Assembly: GCA_016928855.1 (NCBI GenBank)
Contig: JAFGKA010000039.1
Location: forward strand, 1-62,671
DNA length: 62,671 nucleotides
Direction: 5' to 3'
Origin: Phycisphaerae bacterium
Lineage (GTDB): Bacteria > Planctomycetota > Phycisphaerae > UBA1845 > PWPN01
How positions within the stretch are numbered: the first letter of the stretch is position 1; every line of letters starts with the position of its first letter. The notes under the pieces were generated by a model, which saw only the letters and a list, made by a program, of their open reading frames with translations, was not told where the DNA came from and did not search any database. Below are positions 6,445 to 31,000 of this stretch, in pieces. Position numbers and translations under genes: made by a program.

Positions 6445-6478
6445 CCGAATGAAACAGCCAAGAAACGGAGATGTAATC

Positions 6479-11287: not shown

Positions 11288-11712
11288 GTTTCCTCCACTC
11301 GCTGCTCGCCGGCATAGGCGATCAGCTCAACCTCGTATTTCACCAGGTCGCCCAGGCAGCCAATCAGCGTCGTCCGGGCCGGGTAGGGTTCACTGAAGAA
11401 CTCGCGATAAATACGATTGTGGGCATCCCAGTCTTCCTGCCGGGCGAGATAGCAGCGCACCTGAACGACATGCGAGAAGTCCAGGCCGGCCATGCCCAGC
11501 ACGCGAGCGACGTTCTGATACGTGCGGCGGGCCTCGTTTTCAAACGTGTCAGGCACGATCCGGCCCTGCTCGTCGGCCGAGGCCATGCCGGACAGGAACA
11601 CGAAGTCGCCGACCCGCACCGCCGGCGAAAACGGTAGCGACGTCGAGAATACCGCGGGATTGCGAATGAATTGAACGGCGTCGTCAAGCATGGTCACACT
11701 CGTTCCTGCCAT
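11284..11712 (-). CDS. RidA/YjgF/UK114 family enamine/imine deaminase
   Basis: 142 aa. FSPAVRVGDFVFLSGMAS ... PARTTLIGCLGDLVKYEVELIAYA. Confidence 0.9.
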   Translation of the reverse strand: MAGTSVTMLDDAVQFIRNPAVFSTSLPFSPAVRVGDFVFLSGMASADEQGRIVPDTFENEARRTYQNVARVLGMAGLDFSHVVQVRCYLARQEDWDAHNRIYREFFSEPYPARTTLIGCLGDLVKYEVELIAYAGEQRVEET

Positions 11713-11718
11713 CTTGCA

Positions 11719-13479: not shown

Positions 13480-13493
13480 GGTCTTCTCCTACA

Positions 13494-15884: not shown

Positions 15885-15920
15885 GGTCTTCTCCTTCGTT
15901 TCAGAATGTGGTCGATGACG

Positions 15921-18680
15921 TTACCGACCGGCATCACACCGCACCTCGAGATCCACCGGTGTGTGCAAGTCGGGCAGACGCAGCGTGTCGCCCGATACCT
16001 CGACGGCCACGCTCGGCGTTGCGGTTACTGACGCAATTGAACGCTTCTGCGGATGGCGCAGCCGCAGGCAGACCTCCATTGGCATCCGCCGCTGCGGCGG
16101 ATCGATGTGGATCCGCATCGTGTCGTCCGCCTCCGCATCAATCCGGTAGCTCATGTTCCCGAATTCCGTCGGCGCATCGTTGACGGCCACGTGCTTGCCC
16201 GGTGCGAGCCACGCACGCGGGATGCCCCGGCCGAGCCAAAGCGTGTCGTCCTGCTCGTGCAGCAGCATGTCCCGCACTAACCGGAGCTGGTCGGTGCACG
16301 AGTAGAGATGCGGCAGCGTGTAATGGTTGTGCCCTGTTCGGATGTTTGTGACCTCGACGGGCGAGTACGTGTCGCGCGTCATTCCGAACGCCAGGAACGA
16401 CCAGAACCCCAGCAGTGTCTTGCGCTCCTCGCCGCGTTTCATCGCTGTCGTGAGATAGCCATACGTGTAGGCGTGATCGATGCCCCGTTCGAACTCGCAC
16501 ACACCGGCGATGAGCCCGGCCCGCTTCTCTATGATGTCCATGAGCCTGTTCGCCCGCTTGTCGCGCGGCGGGAGAAAGCCCGTTCCCAGCAGCGGGCTGG
16601 CCACCAGCCCGTAATAGTCGCCGCCGGTGTACTTGCTGAGCTTGAGCAGCCGTTGCGTATCCGGCTCCATCGGCAGAATTGTCTGACCGTTGTCGGCAAA
16701 GGCCGCGGCATCCATCGAGTCGAGGATATCCTGGCGATACTTCGCAGCCTCGATCGCAAACGCGTCGGCCTGTTCGGCACCGATGTCCTTCAACGCGGCC
16801 CCAGAAAGCTCCAGGCCTCGCGCGCACCACACATTGCCCAGATAGTTGAACACCGGCTCGGCGTAATCGTTGTACGGCCGGAACTTGATCAGTCCGCGCG
16901 TCATACCGTCGGCCGGGCCGGCCGCGCGCTGGCGGACGAGCCACTCGCACTGCTTGATGATGCTCGGGCTCACGCGCTCCAGCCACGCGCGATCGCCGGT
17001 GAACTGGTACTGCCGGATCAAGCCAACAAGAAAGCCACCGGGATCGGTCAAGCCGCAGACCTGCGTGTACAGGCCGTCAGGTTGCTGAAAGTGAATCTGC
17101 GTATCCAGGACGCGCGCTGCATGGTCGTGCAAGCCGTACATGTTCATCGCCCACGTGTGCAGCGAGACGCTGTTGCCGAACATCTGCTCATAGAAGCCGG
17201 CGCCGTCATGCGGCTCGACGTAGCCGTCGATCGTGTCGCAGTTCAACAGCGAATAGACGATCCACGCCCGGTAAGCCTCCATCACACGGCGATCGGGCAT
17301 GTCGAACCGCTCCGCGGGCGCGAGTACGTTCCGCCAGAACGCCGCCGTCTCGACCAGCTTCGCTTCAAACGCATCGGCAGTGATCTCGCTGGCCGTCTCC
17401 GGCTGGGGATGCTTGAATCGCACGCACCACCGCGCGGAGCCGTCTCTTGCCTTGGCCGGCCATACATGCCGCGTTTCGCCGCTGCCCCAGGCCAGCGCAA
17501 GCTGTTCAGGCACGCGGCCACCGCGCGACCGCGCGGTCAGGCGGGCGTAGGCATACAGGTCCGTGTCGACACGAAACCCCTCGGATATGGCGAAGACCAT
17601 CAGTTCGTAATCAACGTCGTCACGGCTTGTGCTCAGTATCACCACCGGCAGATAGCCCGCCAGCAAGCGGCGGGTGATCGTGGCGGTCAGGCCGGGGACG
17701 AGGTGCGTCGCAGAGCGGTCCCAGGTGAAATAAGCACCGTTTCCACCCCCGAACGGCACGGGCGGATCGCCGATCTCGAACCACGCGGTCGGCGCTCCCC
17801 AGGGCGTCACGTCCAGCCGCCCAAGGCAGTCCACGCCGAGGTCCAGCGGATGCACCGGCACGCCGACGACTTCGCGCGGCGACTTCATCGGCGGATAATG
17901 GCCGGCGATCGCTTCGAACGTCGGATCGTCGTCGTTCTGCGTCAGGACCGCGTTGACCGGCTCACCCGGCGGTCGCCGCACCGCCTCGCGTTCGGCCTCG
18001 GTCAGTGTCAACACGGCGGGCGGCGTTGCCTCGATGCGCAGATCACCCACGAGACCGCTGACCTTGACGCCAGGCACATCGGCAGGGCCGCGAAACGGCT
18101 TGTGGTCGGCACCGTAGTACTTCCCGACCGCGACGCGCTTCGGCGCGCCGGCGAACGTCGTCGGCCGTTCGATCGTGCGCATGTCGATCCACTTCTCGCC
18201 GTCATGGGATTGAAGGCGAACGTGATCCTGGCCTAGTACGATGCGCACGCGGTGGGCGCAGCCGAAATCGACGCCGCGATCATCGACCTCACGAGCCTTG
18301 CCCCCAACCACGTCGATGCTGTAGAACCGGCCGAATGGCGTCGGCGAAAGCATCCCGACCCCGCACCAGTTGTCGGCATCCCACACGAGATACACGGCGC
18401 CCCATCGTACGACGGTCGCAGAGAGCGTGATGTTGTCTATGCCCAGTTGGCGTTCGATATGCCCAACGCCGTCCAGCGGCCCCTCGACGGCCAGCCAACC
18501 GTCCGTGACCTTGACGGAAGCCTCAGGCGACGCCTTGGGCGACCACGCCGCATCCAGCGTCTCCGAGGCGAAGCGTTCATGCAGCGGAAGCGCCACGTTC
18601 CCGTTGGCTACGGTTGCCGGAACCATTCCCACGCACACGGCCAGCAGCACGAGCCGTTGCAGGCCATTCGTTGCCATCAC
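15921..18680 (-). CDS. Secreted large protein, N-terminal lectin/LamG-like domain plus six-hairpin glycosidase-like domain, family unknown
   Basis: 919 aa. Signal peptide LLAVCVGMVPATVANG. The core SVSLHTWAMNMYGLHDHAARVLDTQIHFQQPDGLY ... QYQFTGDRAWLERV appears distantly similar to the 796-aa neighbour (by eye). Confidence 0.65.
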   Translation of the reverse strand: MMATNGLQRLVLLAVCVGMVPATVANGNVALPLHERFASETLDAAWSPKASPEASVKVTDGWLAVEGPLDGVGHIERQLGIDNITLSATVVRWGAVYLVWDADNWCGVGMLSPTPFGRFYSIDVVGGKAREVDDRGVDFGCAHRVRIVLGQDHVRLQSHDGEKWIDMRTIERPTTFAGAPKRVAVGKYYGADHKPFRGPADVPGVKVSGLVGDLRIEATPPAVLTLTEAEREAVRRPPGEPVNAVLTQNDDDPTFEAIAGHYPPMKSPREVVGVPVHPLDLGVDCLGRLDVTPWGAPTAWFEIGDPPVPFGGGNGAYFTWDRSATHLVPGLTATITRRLLAGYLPVVILSTSRDDVDYELMVFAISEGFRVDTDLYAYARLTARSRGGRVPEQLALAWGSGETRHVWPAKARDGSARWCVRFKHPQPETASEITADAFEAKLVETAAFWRNVLAPAERFDMPDRRVMEAYRAWIVYSLLNCDTIDGYVEPHDGAGFYEQMFGNSVSLHTWAMNMYGLHDHAARVLDTQIHFQQPDGLYTQVCGLTDPGGFLVGLIRQYQFTGDRAWLERVSPSIIKQCEWLVRQRAAGPADGMTRGLIKFRPYNDYAEPVFNYLGNVWCARGLELSGAALKDIGAEQADAFAIEAAKYRQDILDSMDAAAFADNGQTILPMEPDTQRLLKLSKYTGGDYYGLVASPLLGTGFLPPRDKRANRLMDIIEKRAGLIAGVCEFERGIDHAYTYGYLTTAMKRGEERKTLLGFWSFLAFGMTRDTYSPVEVTNIRTGHNHYTLPHLYSCTDQLRLVRDMLLHEQDDTLWLGRGIPRAWLAPGKHVAVNDAPTEFGNMSYRIDAEADDTMRIHIDPPQRRMPMEVCLRLRHPQKRSIASVTATPSVAVEVSGDTLRLPDLHTPVDLEVRCDAGR

Positions 18681-18717
18681 GCACCACGCCTTTCAATACG
18701 GGTCCTCTCGTGAGCCG

Positions 18718-19743
18718 TCATTCCGAGTCCTCGCGAGGCATCGCGGCGGAGTTGCGCTCGTCGCACACGATTGCTTCTCCGGTCCGAGCCGATCGTTCAC
18801 ACGCCGTCGACACCTCCAGAGCGCGAAGCCCGTCGGCAACCGTCGCCACCCGAGCCTCGCCGTACTCAATCGCTTCGGCAAATACGTCGTACTGCCGATC
18901 CCACTCCGGCGCCATCGGCGGCAGGGCCAACGCACCGGATGCGCCGGCGATCCACCACGATCCGCGGCCCGTCGATAAGCTCAGCTCGACTCGGCCATCG
19001 GGACCTTCGACGGACACGGTGCACGGCGGCAGCTCCGGCAGCAGCCAGCCGATTTCGATCTCCAACGTCGAGCTGTCGGCCAAGTCGACGCTCGCCTGCC
19101 AGACGTTTGGACCGGCCAGGTCGTCTTCAGTGCGCGTTGCCGTCGCGCGAATGCGCTTCCACGGCGACGAATTCCAGAGCACCGCGTAGTCGATCACGTG
19201 TGATCCCTCGTGCGTCATTGCGGAACTGTCGCGCAGAAAGCCCTGGATGCGAGTAAAGTGCTCCGTGTCGGCACGGTCGAGCTTCTCGTCGTAGATCGCT
19301 ACGTGATATCGCGCCGGCGTTCCGATCTTGCGTGCCAATTGTCGGATCATCTCGACGCAGGCGCCATAGCGCAGGACGAAACCCACCTGGAACACGCCTC
19401 CGCATCTGGTGATGGTATGTGCCATGCGCCGACCGTCTTCGATCGTCGAGGCCAGCGGCTTCTCGTCCAGCACGGGAATCGATCGCTCCAGGCATGCGAT
19501 CGCGACATCCGGGCTGACCTCCGGCGGCAGCGCCAGCACTGCTGCGTCGACGGCTTCCCCGTCCAGGAGGGCTCGCCAGTCCGTATACGTCGCGGCAGCG
19601 CCGGCTTGACCGGCAAGGCGCTTCGCTCGTTCGAGACGCGTGTCACACAAGGCAACGGCGTGGAACTGCGAATGGCGCATCAGCGCCGGCAGATGGCCGC
19701 TCTCGGCAACCGCACCGCAGCCAATGATTGCCACGCGGTACAC
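18718..19743 (-). CDS. Gfo/Idh/MocA family NAD(P)-dependent oxidoreductase
   Basis: 341 aa. Rossmann start VAIIGCGAVAESGHLPAL. The GTG start shares one base with the upstream TAG stop (TAGTG at 19741-19745). Confidence 0.9.
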   Translation of the reverse strand: MYRVAIIGCGAVAESGHLPALMRHSQFHAVALCDTRLERAKRLAGQAGAAATYTDWRALLDGEAVDAAVLALPPEVSPDVAIACLERSIPVLDEKPLASTIEDGRRMAHTITRCGGVFQVGFVLRYGACVEMIRQLARKIGTPARYHVAIYDEKLDRADTEHFTRIQGFLRDSSAMTHEGSHVIDYAVLWNSSPWKRIRATATRTEDDLAGPNVWQASVDLADSSTLEIEIGWLLPELPPCTVSVEGPDGRVELSLSTGRGSWWIAGASGALALPPMAPEWDRQYDVFAEAIEYGEARVATVADGLRALEVSTACERSARTGEAIVCDERNSAAMPREDSE

Positions 19744-21656
19744 TAGCGTCCCCCCTTATCCGATACGCCGCACATGGCTGGCACGCCCTCGCCCGGCATC
19801 TCGGATTCGCCGGTTGCCTCCGTTCCGGCAACCGACGCCCGGTAGCTGCGCAGCCAGCAGGCGTAGTACGCCCAGCCGCTCAGCACGCCGACCAGCAACA
19901 GAGCGGCTGACGCCGCCCAGCGCAGCAGCACCGCAGTAAAGAACGCCCACGTGATCGCAAAACAGAAGACGATGCCACAGCCGGCCGCGCGCAGATCCCA
20001 CGTGCGCTCCAGCCGCCGCTGTCGCGCATCGACGAGCCCCTCGGCCTCCAGTGCGGTGCGTACAGGGCCCCACAAGCCGGGCGGTCGAACCTGACGATAG
20101 AACCGGCGAAGCACTTGGCGCGACTCGGGCTTCGTCAGCAGCGAAACCAGCACGCTGCCACCCAGACCGACACCAAGCAGCAGCAGCGTGGGCTGCCACG
20201 CCGGTCGATCCTTCCATTCCAGACCAAACCAGACGAGTGCCGAAAGCGGAACGGATATCAGAATGCCGAAGATTTCCCCCCAGACATTGAACCGCCACCA
20301 GAACCACCGCAGCCACGAAAGCGGCAGCGCCGGCGCAATCATCGCCGCGTTGATGAAGAACACCCAGGGGCCAATGTTCTCGATGCCAAGCGCCAGTCCG
20401 GTGGCCAGCGCCATCATGACGATCATGACGCACCGCGTGACGCGGATGTACTCGCGCTCCGGCGCGTGAGGCCGCACGTGGCGCCGATACAGATCGTTGA
20501 CGACGAAAGCCGATCCCCACTGCAACAGCGTGCCGACGGTGGACATGTAGCCGGCCAGCACTGCCGCGACGAGCAGCCCGCCGAAGCCGGGAATCCGGTC
20601 CGCGTAGCGCACGACGAGCTGCGACCACACGCTGATCGACGGCGCTGTCGAGCCGTCGGCGAGGACCATCGTTTCGCGCGTCCCGGCATCTGCCGCAGGG
20701 AACATCGCGATCGCGAGCACACCCAACGGCAGCAGCGGGATCATCCGCACCACGAGGCTCAGGACGCAACTGAACATCTGACCGAAGACGGCGTGGCGTT
20801 CATCGCGGGCAGCCAGGCATCGCTGCGCGGTCCAGCCCTCGCCGGCACACGGACTGCCGGCGAGAAAGAGACCGATGAGAATCAACGCGAAGAATGTTGC
20901 CGGGCCGACGTAACTGTTCGTGCCAGCCGACGGCGGGAAGATCTGCCAGAAATCCGCGCCGCGCGCCGCCATCGCCCGCTCGAGCAGTGCGGCATAGCTG
21001 CCGTGCTCCTGCACGCCGAAGAACCACACAATCAGAGCCGCGACGAAGAAGATGAAGAACTGCGGAACGTCGATATACGCCGCACCGAGCAGGCCGCCCA
21101 TCAGCGTGTATGTCAACGTGATCGCGCCAAACACGAGGACAACCGAGAACGGCGTCCAGCCGATCAACGGCGCGAGAAGCTGGGCAAGCATGGCCGTGCC
21201 GTAGCCGAGGAAGACGGTCGCCCAGCCGAGGCATGCATAGACGCCGAAGAAGCCGCGAAACACTGCCGCACCACGGCCGGAATAGCGGAACTCGATCAAC
21301 TCGCCCGTCGTCACCAGCCCGGTGCGGCGCCACATCTTTGCCCAGAACACGCCGACCAGCGGCATCCAGATCGGCCAGGCGATCCACGCGATCTGGTTGA
21401 GGTACATGAACCCGCCGACGAAAAACAGCCACACCCAGCCGCCGCCCGAGTCGGCGTAGGTCGCGGTGTTTGAGAAGCCGATGACCCACCAGGGCAGACT
21501 GCGCTCGCCAATAAGGAAGCCATTGGCCGATTTCGTTGCGGCGCGCGAGAAATAGAGCCCCAGTGCGATCATCGCGCCGGAATAGACAGCGATCACTGCC
21601 CAGCCGGCGGTGCCCAGGCGAAGCGACTGCGTGGCTGCCAGCACCGCCGAACTCAT
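19743..21656 (-). CDS. Sodium:solute symporter (SSS) family transporter
   Basis: 637 aa and polytopic. FLIGERSLPWWVIGFSNTATYADSGGGW. The start overlaps the upstream stop (ATGA at 21653-21656). Confidence 0.85.
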   Translation of the reverse strand: MSSAVLAATQSLRLGTAGWAVIAVYSGAMIALGLYFSRAATKSANGFLIGERSLPWWVIGFSNTATYADSGGGWVWLFFVGGFMYLNQIAWIAWPIWMPLVGVFWAKMWRRTGLVTTGELIEFRYSGRGAAVFRGFFGVYACLGWATVFLGYGTAMLAQLLAPLIGWTPFSVVLVFGAITLTYTLMGGLLGAAYIDVPQFFIFFVAALIVWFFGVQEHGSYAALLERAMAARGADFWQIFPPSAGTNSYVGPATFFALILIGLFLAGSPCAGEGWTAQRCLAARDERHAVFGQMFSCVLSLVVRMIPLLPLGVLAIAMFPAADAGTRETMVLADGSTAPSISVWSQLVVRYADRIPGFGGLLVAAVLAGYMSTVGTLLQWGSAFVVNDLYRRHVRPHAPEREYIRVTRCVMIVMMALATGLALGIENIGPWVFFINAAMIAPALPLSWLRWFWWRFNVWGEIFGILISVPLSALVWFGLEWKDRPAWQPTLLLLGVGLGGSVLVSLLTKPESRQVLRRFYRQVRPPGLWGPVRTALEAEGLVDARQRRLERTWDLRAAGCGIVFCFAITWAFFTAVLLRWAASAALLLVGVLSGWAYYACWLRSYRASVAGTEATGESEMPGEGVPAMCGVSDKGGR

Positions 21657-22522
21657 TCGCTCGCCTCCGTCGTTCCTCGCGGATCCGGCAAGCCGAGCAA
21701 CGACAGAGCGTCGCGGTGAACCAGCGCCTCGATCTCTTCGGCCGGCAGCGTGAAGCGGTCGATACGAATGTCACACATCGCTCGCAAGCCGCGCACGCTC
21801 TGCTCCACCGTCGTGACGGGAAAGTCCGTGCCAAAAAGCAGCTTGTCCCATACGCCATACTCTTCGACGAGCATCAGGGTGTGGAACAGTTGCCACGGCC
21901 GGTAGAACAGCGCGCTGACGTCGGCGTAGACGTTCGCATGCTTGCGGATGACCGCGACGGTCTCGCCCTCGTACGGATGGCCCATGTGCGCCAGGACGAT
22001 CTTCACATCCGGAAACCGCCGCGCCACTTCATCGAGGTTCCGCGGCAGCGTGCACTCCAGCGGCGCCTTCGCAATGAATGTTGTTCCCGTGTGCAGCAGC
22101 ACCGGCAGGCCCTTCGCCGCCGCATAGCGCCATAACGGATCAAGTCGCTCATCCTGCGGAAGAAAGCCGGCGTACATCGGCATGAGCTTGATCCCGCGCA
22201 GCCCGAGCTGTTCGTGGCCGGTGCGTAGTTCGTCCTCCCAGCCGCTCTGCGTCGGATCGACCGACAGAAAGCCCAGCAGCCGTCGCGGATCGTGCACGAC
22301 GTAGGCGGCGACCTGTGCATCGTCCAACCAGACACCCGACAGCCGGGCCTTACCGCCGAACACGATCGTTACAACATCTTTGCCGCCGGTCGCGGCACGG
22401 TATGCCTCGTGATCGCTGACAGCCGTTGCCGCGGCCGCTCTCGTTCGCTGCGCATCAGCCAGGAACGATGCGGAGAAGCAGTCCGTACCCGGCCAGCAGT
22501 GCGCGTGGACATCCACAATCAT
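21653..22522 (-). CDS. Amidohydrolase_2-type metal-dependent hydrolase
   Basis: The family begins at MIVDVHAHCWP. That ATG (22522) overlaps the creatininase stop as ATGA, so the 41 upstream codons of the longest ORF were trimmed. Confidence 0.8.
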   Translation of the reverse strand: MIVDVHAHCWPGTDCFSASFLADAQRTRAAAATAVSDHEAYRAATGGKDVVTIVFGGKARLSGVWLDDAQVAAYVVHDPRRLLGFLSVDPTQSGWEDELRTGHEQLGLRGIKLMPMYAGFLPQDERLDPLWRYAAAKGLPVLLHTGTTFIAKAPLECTLPRNLDEVARRFPDVKIVLAHMGHPYEGETVAVIRKHANVYADVSALFYRPWQLFHTLMLVEEYGVWDKLLFGTDFPVTTVEQSVRGLRAMCDIRIDRFTLPAEEIEALVHRDALSLLGLPDPRGTTEASE

Positions 22523-23298
22523 GTTGAGCCCTCCACGCCTGGCGCATCCGGCCAGCAGCTCACGAGCAGTTCCTTGAGTGCCCCGACCGTGATGTCGAGG
22601 ATCTTGCGACCCTTCTCGGCGGTCGCCAGAGACGGTTTGCCCCACGCACCCGTCTTGGTGATCCGCTCCATCGGCACGGCGCGGCTGGCCGCGCCACCGG
22701 TCAGCAGGTCGCCCCGCATCATGGGTGACGCGGCTGGGATGCCATCGTCTTTCGCGACAGCCATATCAACGAGGTCAGGCCGCAGGGCCAGCACGACGCT
22801 GGTCTCCAGTTCGCACGCATGGCCGACGGCCGGGTAGTCACCGTCGACGAGTGGTCGCAGCCGCTCGGCCGCCACGCGGAACCAGGCCGTCGATACGACC
22901 TCGACCTCAGGCCATCGCGCTGCCGCCTGTTCGAGGACCACGCCGGCAATCGAGCTGTTGCCGCCGTGGCCGTTGAGCAACAGAAACCGACGGAATCCGT
23001 GGCGCACCGCCGCAGCCAGCGTTTCCAGCACCACACAGCGAAACGTCTCATGCGTCAGCGTGAGCGTGCCGGTGAAGGCCATATGGTGCTCACTGCAGCC
23101 GACACGCGGACCAGGCATCACAAGAAGGCGCCCGCCACAGACGGCATCGAGCCGTACGGCGAACTCGTTGATGATCAGGCTGTCAGTCATCAACGGCAGA
23201 TGCCGCCCGTGTTGCTCAACCGCGCCGAGCGGCAGAATACACACCGTCTCGCGTGATACGTCCGCCATGCGAAGGGCGCTGAGTTCTTCCCACTTCAT
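22519..23298 (-). CDS. Creatininase-fold (creatinine amidohydrolase family) hydrolase
   Basis: LPLGAVEQHGRHLPLMTD, LLLNGHGGNSS, VGHACELETSV. ATG 23298 overlaps the upstream stop (ATGA), so the longest ORF (to 23442) was trimmed. Confidence 0.85.
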   Translation of the reverse strand: MKWEELSALRMADVSRETVCILPLGAVEQHGRHLPLMTDSLIINEFAVRLDAVCGGRLLVMPGPRVGCSEHHMAFTGTLTLTHETFRCVVLETLAAAVRHGFRRFLLLNGHGGNSSIAGVVLEQAAARWPEVEVVSTAWFRVAAERLRPLVDGDYPAVGHACELETSVVLALRPDLVDMAVAKDDGIPAASPMMRGDLLTGGAASRAVPMERITKTGAWGKPSLATAEKGRKILDITVGALKELLVSCWPDAPGVEGST

Positions 23299-23786
23299 GC
23301 GTGCACCTCCAGCGGCAAATAGCCGACGAAGCCCGCGATTCGCCATTGCCCGCCGATTCGATGAAGGCGATAGAGCGTCTGCGCCGACACCTGCCATCGC
23401 TTCCCGTTTTGCAGCGGCGCATCGATCTTGAACTGTTTCCATGCCACCGCGCGGTCGGTGTGGATTTCGATGCGGTCCAGCGTAGTCAGTTCGAATAGCA
23501 GCGTCAGTCGATCGCCGACGACCGGCTTGCAGCGATACTCTTCAGCCATGTGCAGCCAGCGATCGCGATAGCCGTCAAGCGTTGGATATTCGAGCGACCA
23601 ATCCGCCGGATCCGCCGATCCGTTTGCGCTGATGCCCTCAAAACGGTCCGCCGCAAAGTCGTTCGCCACAAGCGACCAGTCGGCCGAGGCGAACGCACGG
23701 TTGTCGCGTGTAACGAGCATTTCCCAAATCGCATGCCGGTCTGGCTCGCTCGCGGCATCAAACGGATTGATCCGCTTGTCGTTCAT
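23295..23786 (-). CDS. NTF2/SnoaL-like small protein
   Basis: 163 aa. Size and pattern (IWEMLVTRDNRAF ... WRIAGFVGYLP) fit an NTF2-like fold. The call is weak. Confidence 0.5.
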   Translation of the reverse strand: MNDKRINPFDAASEPDRHAIWEMLVTRDNRAFASADWSLVANDFAADRFEGISANGSADPADWSLEYPTLDGYRDRWLHMAEEYRCKPVVGDRLTLLFELTTLDRIEIHTDRAVAWKQFKIDAPLQNGKRWQVSAQTLYRLHRIGGQWRIAGFVGYLPLEVHA

Positions 23787-24553
23787 CAGCAGCCTCCCCG
23801 GCGCTGCAGCAGCCGCGCGGCATTGCCGTAGAACACCTGCTCGGCCTCCGCCGCGGTCAGTCCGGCTTCCACCACGTCGTCAATCCGCTCGGCCAGCAGC
23901 TCCCACGTAGCCGCGCCGAAGTCGGAGCCGAACAGCACCTTATCCGCGCCGCCCGTCGCCACGAGGTGCAGCAGATCACCGCCACGCGGGCCGCAGAAAC
24001 AGGCGTACAGATTCGGCACGTCGCGGATAAGCTGTGCCGCCGCATCGACGTAGTCAGCCAGGCCGGCGTGCCCGAGGATAATCGTTGCCTCCGGCACCCA
24101 GCGAGCGACCTCGGCAACCTGAAACGTCGTGCAGTACGGCGGCGTGCCGTCGTGAAAGATCACCGGAGCGTCGTGCCGTGCGGCAACGCGCAACAGCCCG
24201 GTCATCGTTTCTTTCAGCATGCTCGGAGCGAACGCCTGCAGCCACGGATGCAACTTCACGCCGCGAAACCGCGCATCGCTCAGCCGTTGTTCCAGTTCTT
24301 CCGCCGCAGCCGGCCCGTCCTTCGGATCCACCGTCGCGAACGGAATCAGTCGGTCGGGATATCGATCGGTCTCGGTTACCAGCGCCTCATTGTGGCTCTC
24401 GCAATTGCCGTAGAACCCCATAACCGTGAAGACGCAGGAGGCTTCGACGTCGAAGCGATCCATGGCCGCGACCATGGCCTCGGCCGTCGGCAGCGGCTGC
24501 CCAAGCCAGTGCCGATCAAGGTGCGTGTGGAAGTCGATGATTCGCATGCCCAT
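23786..24553 (-). CDS. Amidohydrolase_2-type metal-dependent hydrolase
   Basis: 255 aa. MRIIDFHTHLD ... ATIILGHAG ... VLFGSDF. Confidence 0.8.
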   Translation of the reverse strand: MGMRIIDFHTHLDRHWLGQPLPTAEAMVAAMDRFDVEASCVFTVMGFYGNCESHNEALVTETDRYPDRLIPFATVDPKDGPAAAEELEQRLSDARFRGVKLHPWLQAFAPSMLKETMTGLLRVAARHDAPVIFHDGTPPYCTTFQVAEVARWVPEATIILGHAGLADYVDAAAQLIRDVPNLYACFCGPRGGDLLHLVATGGADKVLFGSDFGAATWELLAERIDDVVEAGLTAAEAEQVFYGNAARLLQRRGGC

Positions 24554-24559
24554 CCTCGC

Positions 24560-25288
24560 TCAGAGGCCAAAGAGCCGTTTGGCGTTGTCATGCAGAATAG
24601 CTCGCCGCGCGTCCTCGGCGAGGCCAAGCCGTTCCAGCGTCCGCAGGCATACCGCGTATCGATTTCGGGGTTCGGCGCTGCCAAACACAATGCGCGACGG
24701 CCCGTGCGCTGTGACGAGCGCCCGAATACCGTCGCCGATCATCATTGAGGTATCGACGTACAGGTTCGGAATCGCGGCAAACGTGCCGGGCAGATCGAAC
24801 CACATGTCGGCAAACCCGCCGAAGCCGGCGATGAACGGCGTAGCTGGCAGCCGCCGTGCTACCTCGGCGACGGCCAGCAGATCCGCGCACACGTACGTAC
24901 CCGTCCGCACCAGCACCGGCCAGCCGTATTCCGCGGCACGTTCGAACAGCGGCATCGCGATCGACTCGGTGGGCATGAACCCCTGTCGCGTTGGATCGAG
25001 AAAAAGACCGACAGCGCCGTCGTCGCGGCCGCGAGCCACGGCGTCCAACGCCTTGCCACCCCACCACGGATTGGCCGTGACCAGGCCGCGAATGCGTGGG
25101 CCGGCCTTCAGCACAAGGGCGTTGCCGGCAGCGTGATCGACGACGAGGCCCGCACCCATCGGACGTGCGATAGCCATCGTCACTTCCGCAGCGTCCATGC
25201 GTCGAAGCAATGTCTCGGCGTCGAGATGCAGGTGCGCTTCTTCGCCAAGCATCGCGTGCGCATCAATGACGGGCAGCGTATTGAGCAT
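24560..25288 (-). CDS. Amidohydrolase_2-type metal-dependent hydrolase
   Basis: 242 aa. PVIDAHAMLG ... RIVFGSAEP. The start overlaps the enolase-family gene end by 26 nt. Confidence 0.7.
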   Translation of the reverse strand: MLNTLPVIDAHAMLGEEAHLHLDAETLLRRMDAAEVTMAIARPMGAGLVVDHAAGNALVLKAGPRIRGLVTANPWWGGKALDAVARGRDDGAVGLFLDPTRQGFMPTESIAMPLFERAAEYGWPVLVRTGTYVCADLLAVAEVARRLPATPFIAGFGGFADMWFDLPGTFAAIPNLYVDTSMMIGDGIRALVTAHGPSRIVFGSAEPRNRYAVCLRTLERLGLAEDARRAILHDNAKRLFGL

Positions 25289-26381
25289 CAGGCTCCACTC
25301 CGAATCCGGGCCCGGTCGGCAACGCTACGCAGCCATCACGAAACACGATTGGCGGCGTCACCGATGAGGTTTTGTAGAACAGCGCCGCCATGAGATCGCA
25401 GGCATAGCGGTCCACCGGAAACGCCGAAAGGCTCGCGGCCAGGCAAACCATCGGCGCCAGCCCCAAGTCCGTCTCCAGGTTCGAGCCGATCGCGCAGGCC
25501 TTACCGGCGGCCTGAGCCCGCTGTGCCATCGCGATCGAATGCGTGAATCCGCCATTCTTGCCGGGATAGACCGAGAGGATGTCGAACGCGTCTTGGTCGA
25601 GTGCATCTTCGAGTTGGCCCGGTGTGAAGATACCTTCGTCGACCATGACCGGCACGCTCACTCGGCGGCGCACCTCGGCAAGCATGGCAAGTCGGTCCCG
25701 CGGCGTGGGCTGCTCCACGAGGCCAAGATCGTAGGCCAGCAACGCCTCAATCGCCCGAATAGCGTCATCCGCTGTGGGATACGCGCCGTTCGCATCGACC
25801 GTGAAGATCGGTTCTGGCCCGAGTCGTTCACGCACCGCGCGCAGCCGCGCGACGTCGTCAATGCCCGGCTTGCCGGTCTTGAATTTGAGCGTCCGCACGC
25901 CCTGGTTCCAGAACTCGACCGCGAGTGCGACAGTCTCTTCCGGCGGATAGGCGCCGATGCTCACACGTGTCGGGATCCACTCAACCGGCTCGCGATCAGC
26001 AATCAGCCTCCACACGGGTACACCCTGCATTCGGGCCCACAGGTCCCACAACGCCGCGTCCACCGCTGCCTTGGCGAAGGCGTTGCCGTGCAACTCGCCA
26101 TCGAGAATGACCAGCGCTTCCGACGGATGCTCGAACTCAGCGCCAACCAGCCGCGGCGACATGAAGTGCTCGATCATCCATTTCGCGGTTTCGGCCGACT
26201 CGCCGCTCCAGATCGGCGCGGTCGTCGCCTCGCCAAAACCTTGCAGGCCGTCGTCGCCGGTGAGCGTCACGGTCACATAGCGAGAGGCCTCATGCCGCCC
26301 GAGAAACGAGACAATCGCGCCGTTTGACCGAACGGGATGGTCGACAACCGTTGCCTCAATCTTCTGAACGCGCAGTGTCAC
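25263..26381 (-). CDS. Enolase-superfamily enzyme, muconate-lactonizing (MLE) subgroup (racemase/epimerase/cycloisomerase type)
   Basis: 372 aa. KxK in TLKFKTG, metal ligands in TVDANGAY, LVEQP and MVDEG, second catalytic Lys in YPGKNGG. The GTG start overlaps the ROK stop (GTGA at 26378-26381). Confidence 0.85.
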   Translation of the reverse strand: MTLRVQKIEATVVDHPVRSNGAIVSFLGRHEASRYVTVTLTGDDGLQGFGEATTAPIWSGESAETAKWMIEHFMSPRLVGAEFEHPSEALVILDGELHGNAFAKAAVDAALWDLWARMQGVPVWRLIADREPVEWIPTRVSIGAYPPEETVALAVEFWNQGVRTLKFKTGKPGIDDVARLRAVRERLGPEPIFTVDANGAYPTADDAIRAIEALLAYDLGLVEQPTPRDRLAMLAEVRRRVSVPVMVDEGIFTPGQLEDALDQDAFDILSVYPGKNGGFTHSIAMAQRAQAAGKACAIGSNLETDLGLAPMVCLAASLSAFPVDRYACDLMAALFYKTSSVTPPIVFRDGCVALPTGPGFGVEPDAQYAARH

Positions 26382-27604
26382 AAATTCGCCTCCGCCTCGC
26401 CAAATCGCGCACCGATCGACGGATACGCAAACAGTCGGTCCCGCGCATCAGCCGCAATGCCGAGAAACGCCGATGTCTCGCCCAGTTCGGCCAGGCGGAC
26501 CTCAATTCCCTGCAGCAACTCGCCGAGTGCGTACTCCGGCAGCGCCCGTTTGAGCGGGTCGAGCAGCAGTTCGCCGGCTTGCACGAACCGGCCTCCGAGA
26601 ATGATTCGCTCGGGGTTGAGGAGACTTACCGCATTGCCCAACCCGCGCGCGAGCGCCCGGGCCGCCTCGGCAAGAATCTCCCTCGCGCGGGCGTCGCCCT
26701 CGCGAGCCGCCTGAAGCATCTGCGTGAAATCATCGTTGGGCATCTCGCCGCGCAGCGTCACCCATTCGGCTTGTTCGGCTGGCAACTGGCGCCACCGTGC
26801 TGCGAGGCGTGCCGGTGCGACATGGGCTTCGAGGCAGCCGCGCCCCCCGCAACCGCAGGGAGGGCCATCCTCGGACACACGCGTATGTCCGATTTCTCCC
26901 GCCGAGCCGTCGCGCCCGACGAGCAGCCGGCCTCGCTCGACAATGCCGCCGCCGATCCCCTCGAGCAGCGTTACGAACAGCGCGTTCTGCGCCCCGCGCC
27001 CGGCCCCGAACGACACTTCGCCGAGGGCCTGCCAGCTATCGCCGCGTTGAATGACCGTGGGTCGGCCTGTGGCTTTGCGGAGCGCCTCGGCGACGGGTAC
27101 GTTCTGCCACCCTGGTACGTTGACCGCCCGGACCGCACCGCCGGTTGCGATATCGACGGTGCCCGGATCCGCCGCACCGACGGCCACAATTCGCACACCA
27201 AGCTTCGGGGCGGTATCGACTGCCAACGTTACCGCCCGCGCGATGCGGCGCAGTCGTCGTTGGGCATCTTCTTCGAACGGGCCGTCCCACCGCCGCTGCC
27301 ATCGAAGCGTACCGCCGAGGTCCGTCACGGCGGCGTTGATGTGGTCCTGGTCGTACTGTACGCATGCCACGCCCAGGCCCCGCAGATCAATCTCGAGCAG
27401 CGTTTGCGGCCGGCCACGGCCGTTGCCGCCCGGCGGTGCCACGACGCTTTCGCGGATCAGCCCATCGCGAAGCAACTCGCCACAGATTTCCGACAACCGC
27501 GAAATCGGCAGGCCGGTGCGATGGTGCAGACCGACGCGTGATTCCGGGCCCTCGTGAAACAGCGAGGCGCAGACGAGCAGGCGATTGTAGACCGGCTTCG
27601 TCAT
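26378..27604 (-). CDS. ROK family transcriptional regulator
   Basis: N-terminal wHTH (RVGLHHRTGLPISRLSEICGELLRDGLI), LLEGIGGGIV, zinc motif CGCGGRGCLEAH. ATG 27604 gives 408 aa. The longest ORF reaches 27715. Confidence 0.85.
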   Translation of the reverse strand: MTKPVYNRLLVCASLFHEGPESRVGLHHRTGLPISRLSEICGELLRDGLIRESVVAPPGGNGRGRPQTLLEIDLRGLGVACVQYDQDHINAAVTDLGGTLRWQRRWDGPFEEDAQRRLRRIARAVTLAVDTAPKLGVRIVAVGAADPGTVDIATGGAVRAVNVPGWQNVPVAEALRKATGRPTVIQRGDSWQALGEVSFGAGRGAQNALFVTLLEGIGGGIVERGRLLVGRDGSAGEIGHTRVSEDGPPCGCGGRGCLEAHVAPARLAARWRQLPAEQAEWVTLRGEMPNDDFTQMLQAAREGDARAREILAEAARALARGLGNAVSLLNPERIILGGRFVQAGELLLDPLKRALPEYALGELLQGIEVRLAELGETSAFLGIAADARDRLFAYPSIGARFGEAEANL

Positions 27605-27817
27605 GCGCCTGCCCTTGGGCCACCAGGCGAGGGGCGGGGCCGGGATTCGAATCGCCTTCGGCTTGCCGCGTGCCATCAGTCCTCGTTCCCGAAAATGATT
27701 CCAATTATGGAACAATTCACCATCAACGGCTCATCTGGTCAGTTAGGGCGGCCGTCATTCTGCCGTCCTGAATGAACGCAAGGTGGGAATCGGCCTTCTC
27801 GCACGCGCCGAAACCCC

Positions 27818-27846
27818 TTGACATAATACTTCCAGAATTGAAAATA
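27818..27846 (+). promoter_or_regulatory. Candidate sigma70-type promoter in the AT-rich divergent region between the ROK gene and the 1136-aa gene
   Basis: TTGACA at 27818-27823, a 16-17 nt spacer, then GAAAAT/AAAATA at 27840-27846. It lies in the only AT-rich patch of this intergenic region. Pattern match only. Confidence 0.25.
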
Positions 27847-28006
27847 ACACGATCTCTGCGGTGCGTCAAGATGCGTCCGGAACCGTGTTGCGAGTCGGCC
27901 TTGCCGGCGCGGGTTTGAGATGGTATCAGCGACCCGCCACGCTCGGCATCGTCATCTTGGCGGTGACGGTGGTTCTCAACATCATCTTCTGGTAGCAGGA
28001 GTGGGT

Positions 28007-31000
28007 ATGCGCTTCATTCGCACAGTCATGCTCGCCTGGCTCGGAGGGCTGGTCGGATTCGCCACCCCGGCCGTCGCCGCCACACCGACATGCGGATTTG
28101 CCCGTCAAGCCATCATCGTGGACGGCCGGCTGGACGACTGGAGCGGAATCCAGCCCAACGTCGTCCAAGGCCGGGAACACCTGTGGTTCGGCCAGGGCAT
28201 GACGCCGGATAGGTGGCGGGACGACAGCGACCTGAGCTACCAGTGGCGCGGTGCGTGGTTTGGCAACAAGCTGTTCTTCGCCTTCGAAGTCACCGATGAC
28301 CACGTGCTCGATCCGACACAGCCCTCTGCCTTTCTGTGCGATTGTGTCGAGATCTACATCGACTACGCCAACCGCGGCGGCCGGCGTGTCCACGTGCTCG
28401 ACGGCCGGGAGGATTGGTTCGCCGCCTGCAAGCCCGGTGAGCTGCTGGGCTACGAACTGCAGTTCCTGCCCACCCAGCCCGCCCGCGTATATCTCGACCA
28501 TGCTGACAAGTATCTGGTCGCCAAACCGCAGACCGAGCGTTTTGTCCGCGAATGGGCCGGCGAAATCGTCGCCACGAAAACGGCCCAGGGTTACTTGATG
28601 GAAATCGGTTTCGCCTTGCCCGATGTGGCGATCAGCGCGGGACGCACAATGGGTATTGAGACCGGGGTGTGCGACGACGACGGCGCCGGACGTGAGAGCA
28701 TCATGATGTGGACCGGCACCAAGGGCGACTTCTGGTTGACGATGGACGGGTACGGCAAGGCGACTCTGGCCGACGGCGGTGAACCTCGCAAACCGGAAAC
28801 GCGCCCGATCGGCAGTCTGGCCACGGGCGCCGTCGTTCTTGGCGTTCAGAACGCGGACATGAGCTGGGGCTTGCGAATCGCGGACGCGGGCCGGGCTTCA
28901 TGCCATCAACCCAGCCCCGTTCAACTGGAGTTCTACCGGGAGAGCGTCCGGAACGTACTGCCGACCAGTCGCGAGCAGCTCCGACTCTGGCAATACGCGA
29001 CAAGCCGGCCCGCCTTCGGCTGGTCCAGGCAGGACTTCGATGCGTCGGACTGGCGCCAAGGTCCCGGCGGCTTTGGAGTAACCGGTACACCCGGAGCGGC
29101 GGTGAGCACGAAATGGGATACGTCCGACATCTGGTTGCGGAATGAGTTCGACCTTGACGAAGTACCGAAGGGTCTGTTGTGGCTGGTTGTTCATCACGAT
29201 GAGGACGCCCAGCTATTCATCAACGGCGTGGAGGCCGCGAGGCTTCGCGGCTACGTCACCAGCTACGCAGAGGTGCAACTCGCGGATGAAGCCATCGCCG
29301 CCTTGAAGCCGGGCCGCAACCTGCTGGCCGTTCACTGCCATCAGACGGGTGGCGGACAATTCATCGACGCCGGCCTGGTCGAACGCACGGCCATCAGCTC
29401 CCGACGGGCTGCCGGCTACGATACGCTTGATTTCCGCTCAAAGCAGATTCTGGGGCGTGCCAGCATCGCATGCGGGTCCACTGTCAAGGTGACCGTCGAG
29501 GATCGCTGGTCCATCGCCGGCGATGTACTTCACCTGGATCGCACCGTGAAGGTTTCCGGCGACGCTCCAGAAGGCTTCCTCTCCGCCATCAATCTCCCGT
29601 TTGAGAAGCCCATGGGGTGGTCTCAGGTGGACTGGTTCGTCCCGGGAATGATCTACGGTGGCTTCGACTACCTGACCGAAACCGCCATCGGCGGCAGAGC
29701 CCACTACCAGCCAGGCCAGTTCACCATCCGCATTCGCGAAGATCGCCTGCCCGCGCCGCTCCTGGCCGCTCGCTTTGAGGATGGGCACACTTTGGCCATC
29801 CTCAATCCGGCACCCCGCGGAGACACCACGGCTGCCGACTCACTCGATATCCAGGCGATCACGCTTACCGACGGACGATTCCGGTTCGGTTCGATCGGCG
29901 CAGAAGAACGCGGCGACGGACTGTCTGTCGGATATTGGTTCCCTGGCACGGAGGGCGAAGTCACCTACCGCGGTGACACATATCCCGGCGGGCACCTGCA
30001 CCGGTGGCGGCGACGCTACCACCCGCTGGAGGACGGCCTCGAACAGCACTATCAGGTCGCGTTTCGCTTTGGCCGTTCAGAAAGCTTTCCGAATTACATG
30101 CAGGCGGCCTGGCGCTGGGCATGGAATTCCCTCAAACCGGCAGTTGTGCCAGTCGACACTGATACAGCCCGGCGCAGCCTGATCGATGCCCTCGCCTCCT
30201 GCGTTGTACAGAAGGATGGCCGGACAGGTATTCCCAATTTCGTCGATTCCATGTCGAAGGACCTGGAGAGGGCCGACCGCAAGGCCATCATGGGATTCAC
30301 CGGCAAGAATCTGGAATCCGCATACTTCATGCTGCGCGAGGCGTCCCTGCCCGGCGACAGAGAGCGCAGCCAACATCTGCGCAAGCTGGCCGAACAGATC
30401 ATCGATTCCTTCGTTCGCCTCAAGATCGATCCACCTGCCGGCGAAGGTTTCAATCTGGACGACGGCCGGCCGAAAAATGCGTTGTGGGACGAGCAGATCT
30501 ACCTGCGTTCCTTCGGCGACGATATCAAGATCCTGCTGAAAGCTTATCAGCACGAGCGCAAGGAGGGCCGCGAGCATCCGGACTGGCTGACCTGGTGCCG
30601 GCGATTCGGCGATTGGCTGCTGACGCAACAGCAGGAAGGCGGAGGCTTTCCACGAACGTGGCAGGCCGGCAGTGGCAAGGTCGTATCGGCATCGCCCAAC
30701 TCGAGCTTCAACGCGATTCCCCTGCTCACACTGCTGAGTCAGATCACCGGCGAAGCCCGCTACCTGAACGCCGCGGCACGGGCGGCGGAGTTCTCATGGG
30801 AGAACGGCCAGGCTCGCGGGCAGTTTGTCGGCGGCACTATCGACAATCCGGATGTGCTCGACAAGGAGGCGGCTACCCTGTCGCTCGAGGCGTATCTCGC
30901 GCTTTACAGAGCAACGGGCGATCATCGCTGGGTGGAGCGGGCCCGGGCCGCCGCCGATTTCGCCGAGACGTGGATCTACATCTGGGATGTGCCGATGCCC

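Follow-up and report, generated by a model that had tools for sequence, protein, structure and literature searches.

In contig JAFGKA010000039.1 of a Phycisphaerae bacterium (GenBank assembly GCA_016928855.1), which was analyzed over its whole length of 62,671 nt and is called the window here, a co-directional array of 14 minus-strand genes extends from position 27715 to position 10616. This array is a single conserved operon, and the eight genes at 18718–26381 are its cytoplasmic core. The operon very likely encodes an oxidative, non-phosphorylative route of sugar degradation, and the order of steps suggested in a preliminary description of this DNA, namely sugar to lactone to acid to 2-keto-3-deoxy acid to aldol cleavage, fits the gene families that we confirmed. 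We propose, with a probability of roughly 0.45, a more specific version in which the substrate is an N-acetylhexosamine, most likely N-acetylgalactosamine (GalNAc) from a glycan, and in which an enolase-superfamily enzyme initiates deamination. We see in this system a new form of known oxidative sugar-acid/hexosaminate catabolism, assembled from non-homologous parts.

In the proposed pathway, a secreted glycoside hydrolase (GH) of family GH123, helped by two further secreted proteins, U796 and U919, would free GalNAc, which a sodium:solute symporter family (SSF) transporter would bring into the cell. A Gfo/Idh/MocA oxidoreductase (GFO) would oxidize C1 of GalNAc to the lactone, and an Amidohydro_2 lactonase, for which AH2c is the best candidate, would convert the lactone to N-acetylgalactosaminate. 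Chemically, N-acetylgalactosaminate is an N-acyl, β-hydroxy, α-amino acid. Its acetyl group would be removed, before or after dehydration, by a creatininase-fold enzyme (CREAT) and/or the AH2b–AH2a pair. The Lys pair of an enolase (ENOL) of the muconate-lactonizing enzyme (MLE) type would take the α-proton, with elimination of the 3-OH and formation of an enamine. An NTF2-like protein and RidA would turn the enamine/imine into 2-keto-3-deoxygalactonate and ammonia, and an RraA-like class II aldolase would cleave 2-keto-3-deoxygalactonate into pyruvate and glyceraldehyde. An oxidative hexosaminate pathway, ong, is known from Pseudoalteromonas prydzensis, where 2-acetamido-2-deoxy-D-gluconate (GlcNAc1A) is converted to 2-keto-3-deoxygluconate (KDG) with a solute:sodium symporter (SSS) family transporter, a GH20 enzyme, a deacetylase, a deaminase dependent on pyridoxal phosphate (PLP) and an essential RidA (PMC9537276). 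In our model, the enolase would stand in for the PLP deaminase OngC, and the RraA-like aldolase for the kinase together with the aldolase of KDPG, the 6-phosphate of KDG. The hexosaminate model would account for three features of the operon together: the amino-acid-type subgroup of the enolase, the fixed presence of RidA, and the lack of a kinase or PLP enzyme gene in the operon.

Window proteins were classified with Pfam and NCBIfam profiles and by sequence search of the Protein Data Bank (PDB), and selected proteins were examined with AlphaFold2 (AF2) and Foldseek. The eight genes at 18718–26381 belong to the families named in the preliminary description (by Pfam, and by structure for the NTF2-like protein), and the motifs quoted there, TLKFKTG, TVDANGAY, LVEQP, MVDEG, YPGKNGG, EQHGRHLP, NGHGGN and HACELETS, are all present in the translations. 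The features of the operon are as follows (aa, amino acids; ORF, open reading frame).

27716–27919, no strand: intergenic stretch from which the operon and a plus-strand CBM9 gene diverge, probably promoter/operator, assigned by position only
26378–27715, minus strand: opening gene of the array, an N-terminally extended ROK-family regulator (NagC/Mlc type; PF00480, 169.8 bits)
25263–26381, minus strand: ENOL, enolase superfamily, MLE subgroup (MR_MLE_N and MR_MLE_C, Pfam)
24560–25288, minus strand: AH2a, Amidohydro_2, 242 aa, degenerate metal ligands (PF04909, 76.8 bits)
23786–24553, minus strand: AH2b, Amidohydro_2, 255 aa, canonical ligands (PF04909, 99.3 bits)
23295–23786, minus strand: NTF2-like protein, 163 aa, fold assigned by AF2/Foldseek, without a Pfam family
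22519–23298 (likely; ORF to 23442), minus strand: CREAT, creatininase-fold metallohydrolase (PF02633, 216.8 bits)
21653–22522 (likely; ORF to 22645), minus strand: AH2c, Amidohydro_2, ~289 aa (PF04909, 122.2 bits, full-length match)
19743–21656, minus strand: SSF transporter, inner-membrane importer (PF00474, 114.7 bits)
18718–19743, minus strand: GFO, cytoplasmic Gfo/Idh/MocA oxidoreductase, proposed sugar 1-dehydrogenase (PF01408, 82 bits)
15921–18680, minus strand: U919, secreted, 919 aa, N-terminal hydrophobic leader, no family match
13494–15884, minus strand: U796, secreted, 796 aa, β-sandwich and (α/α)6 barrel by AF2/Foldseek
11719–13479, minus strand: GH123, secreted, predicted exo-β-N-acetylgalactosaminidase type (GH123_cat, PF13320, 294.8 bits)
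11284–11712, minus strand: RidA family, proposed 2-imino-acid deaminase (PF01042, 76.9 bits)
10616–11287, minus strand: RraA-like, proposed class II pyruvate aldolase (PF03737, 123.4 bits)

Layout and conservation of the operon

Intergenic spacing in the array ranges from −26 to +37 nt, and a Shine-Dalgarno-like GGAGG lies ahead of each start. For CREAT and AH2c, we preferred the starts at 23298 and 22522 because of ATGA stop/start overlaps (at 23298, with the stop of the NTF2-like gene) and an upstream GGAGG; both ORFs are probably over-extended. The ROK regulator, which gave partial matches to the NCBIfam Mlc and NagC models from residue ~54 onward, overlaps the enolase start with its stop by 4 nt. 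The DNA stems from a sediment metagenome, and its host was taken to be a planctomycete of Isosphaeraceae type. A metatranscriptome belonging to the same study as this metagenome contains contigs that match the window at 99% identity or more in RraA, U919, CREAT, the NTF2/AH2b junction and ENOL, which argues that the array is transcribed in situ, with DNA carry-over as another possible source of these contigs. Promoter-like hexamers at 27818–27869 were no more numerous on either strand than in shuffled sequence, and a terminator scan likewise did no better than with shuffled sequence. In the source metagenome, one DNA contig runs directly from position 10795 to 24480, leaving out 13.7 kb, at a depth of 6 compared with ~30; the junction has just 21 letters on its shorter side, and may be an artefact of assembly or reflect a variant strain whose operon is shorter.

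Synteny was analyzed in 26 genome loci (designated by L numbers) fetched by enolase orthologues of 55–78% identity, against which every window protein was searched. The enolase-bearing loci belong to Planctomycetota (Isosphaeraceae, Pirellulales, Tepidisphaerales and Phycisphaerae), Verrucomicrobiota and Bacteroidota. In Aquisphaera insulae, ROK-ENOL-AH2a-AH2b-NTF2-CREAT-AH2c-SSF-GFO-RidA-RraA are contiguous, and five Pirellulales/Planctomycetota genomes have the same gene set, also contiguous, with the NTF2-like and creatininase genes moved behind the transporter. Partial versions occur in Singulisphaera and other genomes, and Isosphaeraceae EP7 has a minimal cluster, ENOL-AH2c-RidA-RraA, with AH2c as its sole amidohydrolase. 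The ENOL-AH2a-AH2b row is kept in Bacteroidota, Tepidisphaerales and Phycisphaerae, and in Verrucomicrobiota (L023, L028) GFO lies directly beside ENOL. ROK is directly upstream of the enolase gene in 14 fetched loci (61–75% identity in 13 of these; divergent, at 42%, in L025), and SSF orthologues of 68–77% identity are inside the operon in 13 loci. At the loci where the enolase alone was found (L008, L010, L015, L020 and L027), there was no consistent gene context.

RraA and RidA, which had been counted as parts of the route in the preliminary description, are contiguous with other operon genes in seven genomes: RidA adjoins GFO and RraA in L016–L019, L021 and L024, and ENOL-AH2c in L003. We therefore regard both as true members; they are 7 kb away from the core in the window, where three genes with N-terminal leader peptides (U919, U796 and GH123) are inserted between GFO and RidA. 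At 11 loci, the neighbors of the operon include orthologues of U796, U919 or GH123, with U796 at L016, L017, L019, L021 and L024, and U919 at L012, L013 and L018. In Singulisphaera sp. Ch08 (L001/L007, 7573–9524), the enolase gene is divergent from an RraA-like gene, which is followed by a gene of the histidinol-dehydrogenase family; this family carries out four-electron alcohol-to-acid oxidation, which hints at another way to the acid substrate. No description of the operon turned up in the literature searched on its combination of genes, on oxidative GalNAc catabolism, on RraA proteins acting on sugar acids and on planctomycete transcriptomics.

The enolase and the associated hydrolases

The enolase has the complete signature of the MLE subgroup: a KxK at the end of strand 2 (K166-F-K168), Asp/Glu/Asp metal ligands (D196, E223 and D248) and, where strand 6 ends, another catalytic Lys (K275). 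These residues are invariant in 14 orthologues and align with the corresponding residues of MLE and of Bacillus subtilis YkfB. Together with the MR_MLE_N and MR_MLE_C domains, they uphold the earlier placement of the protein in this subgroup. Its position within the subgroup was judged by relative phmmer and NCBIfam scores rather than by a tree. The top PDB match was the B. subtilis L-Ala-D/L-Glu epimerase (AE epimerase; 1jpm, 161.6 bits, 2.5e-46), followed by an MLE (3i4k, 152.5 bits, 1.5e-43) and by N-acylamino-acid racemases (NAAARs) at ~132 bits. The sugar-acid dehydratases reached ~62 bits in this search, and the NCBIfam models for FucD and for galactonate and rhamnonate dehydratases gave 33–69 bits. 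No NCBIfam cut-off was reached by the enolase, whether for muconate/chloromuconate cycloisomerase (TIGR02534, 190 bits against 334.95), for the o-succinylbenzoate synthase (OSBS)/N-succinylamino-acid racemase (NSAR)/N-acetyl-D-Glu racemase models (TIGR01928, 120.1 against 200.65; NF042940, 115.6 against 400), for dipeptide epimerases (NF041118, 95 against 500; NF011708, 71 against 343) or for one further model (108 against 500).

These matches bear on an alternative in which the operon serves the salvage of peptides or N-acyl amino acids, with the enolase as a dipeptide epimerase or NSAR and the hydrolases as peptidases or acylases. The top-ranking epimerase and the NAAARs speak for it, as do the best curated match of the creatininase-fold protein, which is to the MftE peptidase model, and an M20 peptidase gene near the cluster in L022. 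In dipeptide epimerases, a DxD motif at the end of the eighth strand binds the ammonium group of the dipeptide. The position of the D-F-D of YkfB is occupied by D329-L-M331 in the window enolase, with M331 nearly invariant in the family, and the equivalog scores are far below their cut-offs. Because the DxD is lacking and no curated cut-off is reached, we regard the enolase, whose family shows 55–83% identity across four phyla, as a family of its own within the MLE subgroup and not a dipeptide epimerase. The peptide scenario is moreover not applicable because every enolase neighborhood examined was of carbohydrate type (ROK, Gfo and secreted glycosidases). The lack of the DxD, the scores below curated cut-offs and the gene context led us to reject a dipeptide-epimerase or NSAR identity, so that peptide salvage is largely refuted and scarcely tenable, and the sugar reading stood up to the peptide test that had been set for it.

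A second alternative is an anhydro-sugar route, in which the enolase would be a cycloisomerase of the 3,6-anhydrogalactonate type acting on a product of red-algal-type galactan. The MLE-like anhydrogalactonate cycloisomerase (ACI; 5xd9) does match the enolase (94.8 bits, 5e-26), and sulfatase genes occur in the window. This match stands behind those of more than 30 other solved MLE-subgroup proteins and is clearly weaker than those to the AE epimerase and MLE (1e-46 to 1e-43) and to NAAAR. Genes for agarase, carrageenase or anhydrogalactosidase were not found in the window, the host belongs to a planctomycete group of sediments and soils, and RidA and deacylases would be superfluous to such a route, which we consider very unlikely. 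The anhydro-sugar-acid option of the preliminary description is accordingly disfavored.

The enolase is, in our proposal, an (N-acetyl)hexosaminate dehydratase, a hitherto unassigned family of the MLE subgroup. It shares the full catalytic set with the amino-acid-type MLE enzymes YkfB, N-acylamino-acid racemase/OSBS and cis-3-hydroxy-L-proline dehydratase, and its solved relatives of this type score 1e-46 to 1e-32; it differs from them in that the DxD of YkfB is absent and the curated thresholds are not attained. cis-3-Hydroxyproline dehydratase abstracts the α-proton of an α-amino acid and then eliminates the β-hydroxyl, as proposed for the window enolase. A second KxK enolase family, enol2, was encountered in a Bacteroidota polysaccharide utilization locus (PUL; L031, 7167–13100) and in L026 (7790–8929). 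It is 26% identical to the window enolase, with 37% identity between its two members. The L031 enol2 gene is in a SusC/SusD locus with a sulfatase gene and is accompanied by RraA-like, SDR, NTF2-RidA fusion, CBM9 and SSF genes.

The three Amidohydro_2 proteins had been described as paralogues. All three pass the Pfam threshold, but they are not equivalent. AH2b (DFHTH, FHDG, LGHAG and FGSDF, conserved in 15 orthologues) and AH2c (DVHAH, LLHTG, LAHMG and FGTDF, conserved) have the full ligand set, that is, HxH on strand 1, His on strands 5 and 6, and Asp on strand 8. In AH2a, DAHAM, VRTGT, FGGFAD and FGSAEP replace the HxH, H, H and D of AH2b, and in 16 of 16 orthologues the ligands are likewise replaced, by HxM, Arg/Lys, Gly and Ala-Glu. 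AH2a is therefore probably not a canonical metalloenzyme despite its Amidohydro_2 fold, and may be a non-catalytic or atypical partner of AH2b. The AH2a gene overlaps the enolase gene and adjoins AH2b in every locus whose sequence extends far enough; a heteromer that pairs a catalytic with a degenerate subunit can reasonably be proposed. AH2b is a candidate hydrolase (lactonase or deacylase) and AH2c a candidate sugar lactonase. A PDB sequence search with the three amidohydrolases returned solely remote or uncharacterized entries (e.g., 3cjp and 3irs), and no NCBIfam model matched AH2a, AH2b, AH2c or the NTF2-like protein.

CREAT has the conserved motifs EQHGxH, HH, NxHGGN and HACExETS. Its scores against models of known function were all below the cut-offs: 115.4 bits against 172 for MftE, 98.7 against 235 for creatininase, 70.1 against 245 for IolN and 23.2 against 180 for ArfB. 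It is a candidate N-deacetylase. MlrC-like proteins (DUF1485 and MlrC_C, M81-type), which may represent a further type of hexosaminate deacylase, are encoded next to NTF2-like, RidA, GH20 and SDR genes in Sinorhizobium fredii (L030, 4367–11988) and in L032 (9572–11029).

Proposed imine chemistry and aldol cleavage, and the probable identity of the sugar

The 163-aa NTF2-like ORF had no Pfam, NCBIfam or PDB sequence match. Its AF2 model, built on 37 homologues, had a predicted local distance difference test (pLDDT) score of 95.7 and a predicted template modeling (pTM) score of 0.90, and Foldseek returned 169 PDB matches at E ≤ 0.001, with a probability of 1.0 for the top matches. The best 50 of the 169 were nearly all natural NTF2-like proteins (ketosteroid-isomerase-like, SgcJ and CaMKII hub), together with two computationally designed ones. 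The α+β cone fold of the model confirmed the name given to the protein earlier. Among 118 homologues, none has a Pfam domain and two are fused to RidA (P0192 and P0211); one such fusion lies in a Bacteroidota PUL between KxK enolase, RraA-like, SDR and SSF transporter genes. We propose that the protein helps RidA in enamine/imine or enol/keto tautomerization.

The gene contexts of this family point to amino sugars. Alphaproteobacteria-type clusters comprise GH20-SDR-RpiR-RidA divergent from NTF2-MlrC, GH20-RpiR-ABC-Gfo divergent from NTF2, and, in the metagenome loci L033 (2985–9477) and L035 (2158–8465), ABC permeases-Gfo/Idh/MocA-Amidohydro_3-Ala_racemase_N/D-ser_dehydrat-PF10282 lactonase-IclR-NTF2-like; these clusters resemble the ong pathway, gene family by gene family. 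With an OngB-like Amidohydro_3 protein and an OngC-like Ala_racemase_N/D-ser_dehydrat protein, L033 and L035 look like a cytoplasmic ong variant that is independent of lytic polysaccharide monooxygenase (LPMO), in which an N-acetylhexosamine (HexNAc) would be converted via its lactone and HexNAc-onate to KDG. Across all fetched loci of the family (~16), the NTF2-like gene is accompanied either by a KxK enolase gene or by one for an OngC-like PLP enzyme, and in no case by both, which suggests non-orthologous displacement. That the NTF2-like family marks oxidative amino-sugar chemistry is plausible, at a little under even odds.

The arginine of the RidA P-A-R motif is invariant in nine sequences (the window protein, seven orthologues and the S. 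fredii neighbor). In RidA proteins, this conserved Arg binds the carboxylate of the 2-imino acid. In GFO, which is proposed to make the lactone by C1 oxidation, the motifs EKP and HEGSH..D are conserved. The RraA-like protein has a WG-x21-RD motif that is invariant in 12 sequences and matches Gly-101/Arg-123/Asp-124 of 4-hydroxy-4-methyl-2-oxoglutarate/4-carboxy-4-hydroxy-2-oxoadipate (HMG/CHA) aldolase; in RraA-fold class II aldolases, an essential Arg is followed by the metal-binding Asp, with a pocket Gly ~22 residues upstream (PMC5065237). It thus has the fold, the Arg-Asp pair, the pocket Gly and the spacing of HMG/CHA aldolase (LigK/GalC; 3NOJ), but its context is sugar rather than aromatic metabolism, and its proposed substrate is a 2-keto-3-deoxy-hexonate. 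The CHA aldolase equivalog gave 95.5 bits (3e-27) and its cut-off of 179 was not reached, so the substrate probably differs. In the Bacteroidota locus L026, a DHDPS-family aldolase gene takes the place of RraA-like.

A lower pathway of the LigI/LigJ/LigK type, with two Amidohydro_2 proteins as lactonase and hydratase, an RraA-like aldolase and an MLE-type cycloisomerase acting on a substrate that may derive from sugar (an unsaturated lactone or pyrone, or a dicarboxylate resembling muconate), would also draw on these families, and the set matches those of protocatechuate 4,5-cleavage and of the lower pathway of gallate, in line with the CHA aldolase score. The window and the loci examined yielded neither a ring-cleavage dioxygenase nor any gene of aromatic catabolism, the amidohydrolases are distant relatives of LigW-type proteins with no LigI/LigJ match found, and the regulator, the transporter, GFO and the secreted glycosidases all indicate a sugar. 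We consider this pathway highly improbable.

For the sugar itself, one indication came from GH123, which is 59% identical over 528 aligned residues (E = 8e-229) to the β-N-acetylgalactosaminidase NaNga of Niabella aurantiaca (8q8h/8p4l). NaNga is a β-NGA with a pocket-type substrate-binding site and was grouped on structural grounds with members that, when assayed, were strictly monosaccharide-releasing; the window enzyme is predicted to be of the exo-β-N-acetylgalactosaminidase type. In the Cyclobacteriaceae locus L026, ENOL-AH2a-AH2b stands in one co-directional row with GH109-like, GH123_N, creatininase-fold and second KxK enolase genes, as well as the DHDPS-family aldolase gene, an N-acylglucosamine-2-epimerase-family gene, and genes for a SIS protein and an MFS transporter. 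GH123, the L026 cluster and the contexts of the NTF2-like family form three independent lines of evidence for an N-acetylhexosamine. The NagC/Mlc-type regulator was also counted for the amino-sugar link, and the substrates of the enolase's nearest solved relatives are muconates, dipeptides and N-acyl amino acids, not plain sugar acids. The extra hydrolases do point to a modified monosaccharide, as had been suggested; among the anhydro, N-acyl, lactam and lactyl forms considered, the N-acyl form (N-acetylhexosamine) is favored and the anhydro form is not. The suggested release of the sugar from a sulfated polymer was not sustained, since its sole basis was sulfatase genes 10–35 kb away.

The other secreted proteins may act on the same glycan. 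U796 and U919 had no Pfam and no PDB sequence match. In the AF2 model of U796 (pLDDT 90), a β-sandwich is followed by an (α/α)6 barrel and a second β-sandwich, and Foldseek matched it with a probability of 1.0 to the folds of GH116, GH95, GH52, GH94, GH65 and GH15 at 10–12% identity; on this model, U796 is probably a new glycoside-hydrolase family. U919 is, in its C-terminal part, a distant relative of U796, with ~24% identity that extends across over half of its length, and the two proteins are candidates for two new glycoside-hydrolase families. Their homologues are annotated as hypothetical in Planctomycetota, Armatimonadota and Acidobacteriota.

The main competing possibility is that the same architecture handles a non-amino substrate, either a hexose of the neutral or deoxy kind or a uronic acid, the latter being oxidized to an aldarolactone. 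The Amidohydro_2 proteins would then be lactonases or lactone isomerases, the enolase a lactone cycloisomerase or dehydratase, and the RraA-like protein would cleave a 2-keto-3-deoxy-aldarate or -aldonate, with keto-enol or housekeeping chemistry left to RidA and the NTF2-like protein. In the uronate route of Agrobacterium tumefaciens (Udh-Gli-Gci), uronate dehydrogenase is followed by galactarolactone isomerase, of the amidohydrolase superfamily, and galactarolactone cycloisomerase, of the enolase superfamily; the route has no RidA, NTF2-like or RraA protein and ends in a decarboxylating dehydration to α-ketoglutarate semialdehyde. By general description, which is the extent of this comparison, the tight pairing of the enolase with Amidohydro_2 proteins resembles the isomerase/cycloisomerase pair, adjacent enzymes acting on a lactone made by a dehydrogenase. 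MLEs are also about as near to the enolase as the AE epimerase (152.5 and 161.6 bits), RraA-type aldolases favor dicarboxylic 4-hydroxy-2-oxo acids, and the DHDPS-family gene of L026 is KdgD-like. A non-amino substrate would leave unexplained the fixed RidA with its intact catalytic Arg, the NTF2-RidA fusions and the ong-like HexNAc cluster contexts. The β-N-acetylgalactosaminidase is the one glycosidase whose specificity can be assigned with confidence, and the window yielded no gene for a uronate isomerase, a Udh-type dehydrogenase or a GH88/GH105 enzyme. We therefore judge a non-amino substrate unlikely, though a serious contender.

Several points weigh against the hexosaminate model. We know of no enolase-superfamily enzyme that acts on hexosaminates, nor of a sugar N-deacetylase in the Amidohydro_2 or creatininase families, so that the deacetylation step is without a precedent-backed candidate. 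CREAT is missing from the operons of L009 and L011–L013. GH123 accompanies some operons only, following those of L009 and L011–L013, and the Pirellulales versions carry U796 instead. The TRAP (organic-acid) transporter gene after GFO-ENOL in L028, the aldehyde dehydrogenase gene in L022 and the heparinase II/III-like lyase gene in L023 fit an acidic, non-amino sugar equally well. RidA-family proteins occur also in amine-free pathways, and the either/or pattern of OngC-like enzyme and enolase comes from ~16 loci, several of which are closely related.

Outside the operon, the genes at 27920–31417 (plus strand) and 37178–42667 (minus strand) encode very large proteins with weak, sub-threshold GH76-like and then GH127-like matches in the same order, which suggests a common uncharacterized six-hairpin-like domain; one of the two carries CBM9, and the other (1829 aa) has an S1 sulfatase domain fused at its C terminus. 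A 1887-aa ORF (31454–37117, plus strand) that lies downstream of the CBM9 protein and is divergent from the operon has a malectin domain as its sole Pfam match. Tandem paralogues with DUF1254 and DUF1214 (4879–6444 and 6449–7999, plus strand) lie downstream of a TetR/EthR-type regulator gene (3642–4670), and a DUF3300-DUF2950 pair (52169–54307, plus strand) is beside a metallo-β-lactamase-fold gene and several sulfatase genes, with an OprB-type porin gene upstream (46875–48335).

Comparison with known pathways and significance

The hexosaminate model resembles the ong pathway in its exo-hexosaminidase, secreted or periplasmic, its SSS-family importer, its RidA and the proposed deacetylation and deamination of an N-acetyl-hexosaminate to a 2-keto-3-deoxy acid. 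In ong, the D-aminoacylase-like OngB deacetylates and OngC deaminates, and the role of the essential RidA is not known (PMC9537276). The structure of OngB showed that it evolved from D-aminoacylases (PMC12017989); nature therefore appears to treat hexosaminates as N-acyl amino acids. The catalytic enzymes of ong are not encoded in the operon, which contains no Amidohydro_1/3, Ala_racemase_N/D-ser_dehydrat, PfkB (KdgK) or GH20 gene, and no OngB-like or OngC-like match was found across the whole window. Whereas an extracellular LPMO makes the acid in ong, GFO and a lactonase would do so inside the cell here; the PLP deaminase would be replaced by a deamination started by the enolase, and KdgK by a non-phosphorylative, RraA-like end. 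The sugar is gluco-configured in ong and probably galacto-configured in the window operon. By this analogy, the operon appears to work like ong but is not a member of it, sharing only RidA and SSS-type parts.

The L-fucose, L-rhamnose and De Ley-Doudoroff-like routes follow the same sequence of dehydrogenase, lactone, Amidohydro_2 lactonase, enolase-superfamily dehydration and aldolase. Unlike in these routes, the enolase of the window is of the KxK (MLE) type rather than an acid-sugar dehydratase, the aldolase has the RraA fold rather than that of HpcH or DHDPS, and RidA, an NTF2-like protein, a creatininase-fold protein and a degenerate amidohydrolase are added.

To our knowledge, the established routes for GalNAc and N-acetylglucosamine all start with phosphorylation, with ong, which uses an extracellular LPMO and a PLP deaminase, as the sole known exception. 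If the hexosaminate model is true, the operon is a second, enzymatically unrelated solution, which is intracellular and requires neither ATP nor PLP. Its boldest form, which we hold tentatively and at odds well below even, is that the enolase is the first 'hexosaminate dehydratase (deaminating)' of the enolase superfamily, in a PLP- and ATP-independent GalNAc pathway with an NTF2-like tautomerase, a pseudo-enzyme heteromer and two new secreted GH families, widespread in Planctomycetota, Verrucomicrobiota and Bacteroidota. Under the model, an orphan enolase family would gain a function, as would the NTF2-like family that lacks a Pfam model, a RidA paralogue, an RraA-fold aldolase active on sugars and a creatininase-fold hydrolase, and NTF2-like, RidA and Gfo would provide a marker set for annotating oxidative amino-sugar metabolism; two candidate new glycoside-hydrolase families are flagged as well. 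The model is directly testable, as cultured carriers of the operon exist (Singulisphaera acidiphila DSM 18658 and Aquisphaera insulae), and it concerns a poorly understood group of glycan-degrading planctomycetes and relatives in sediments and soils.

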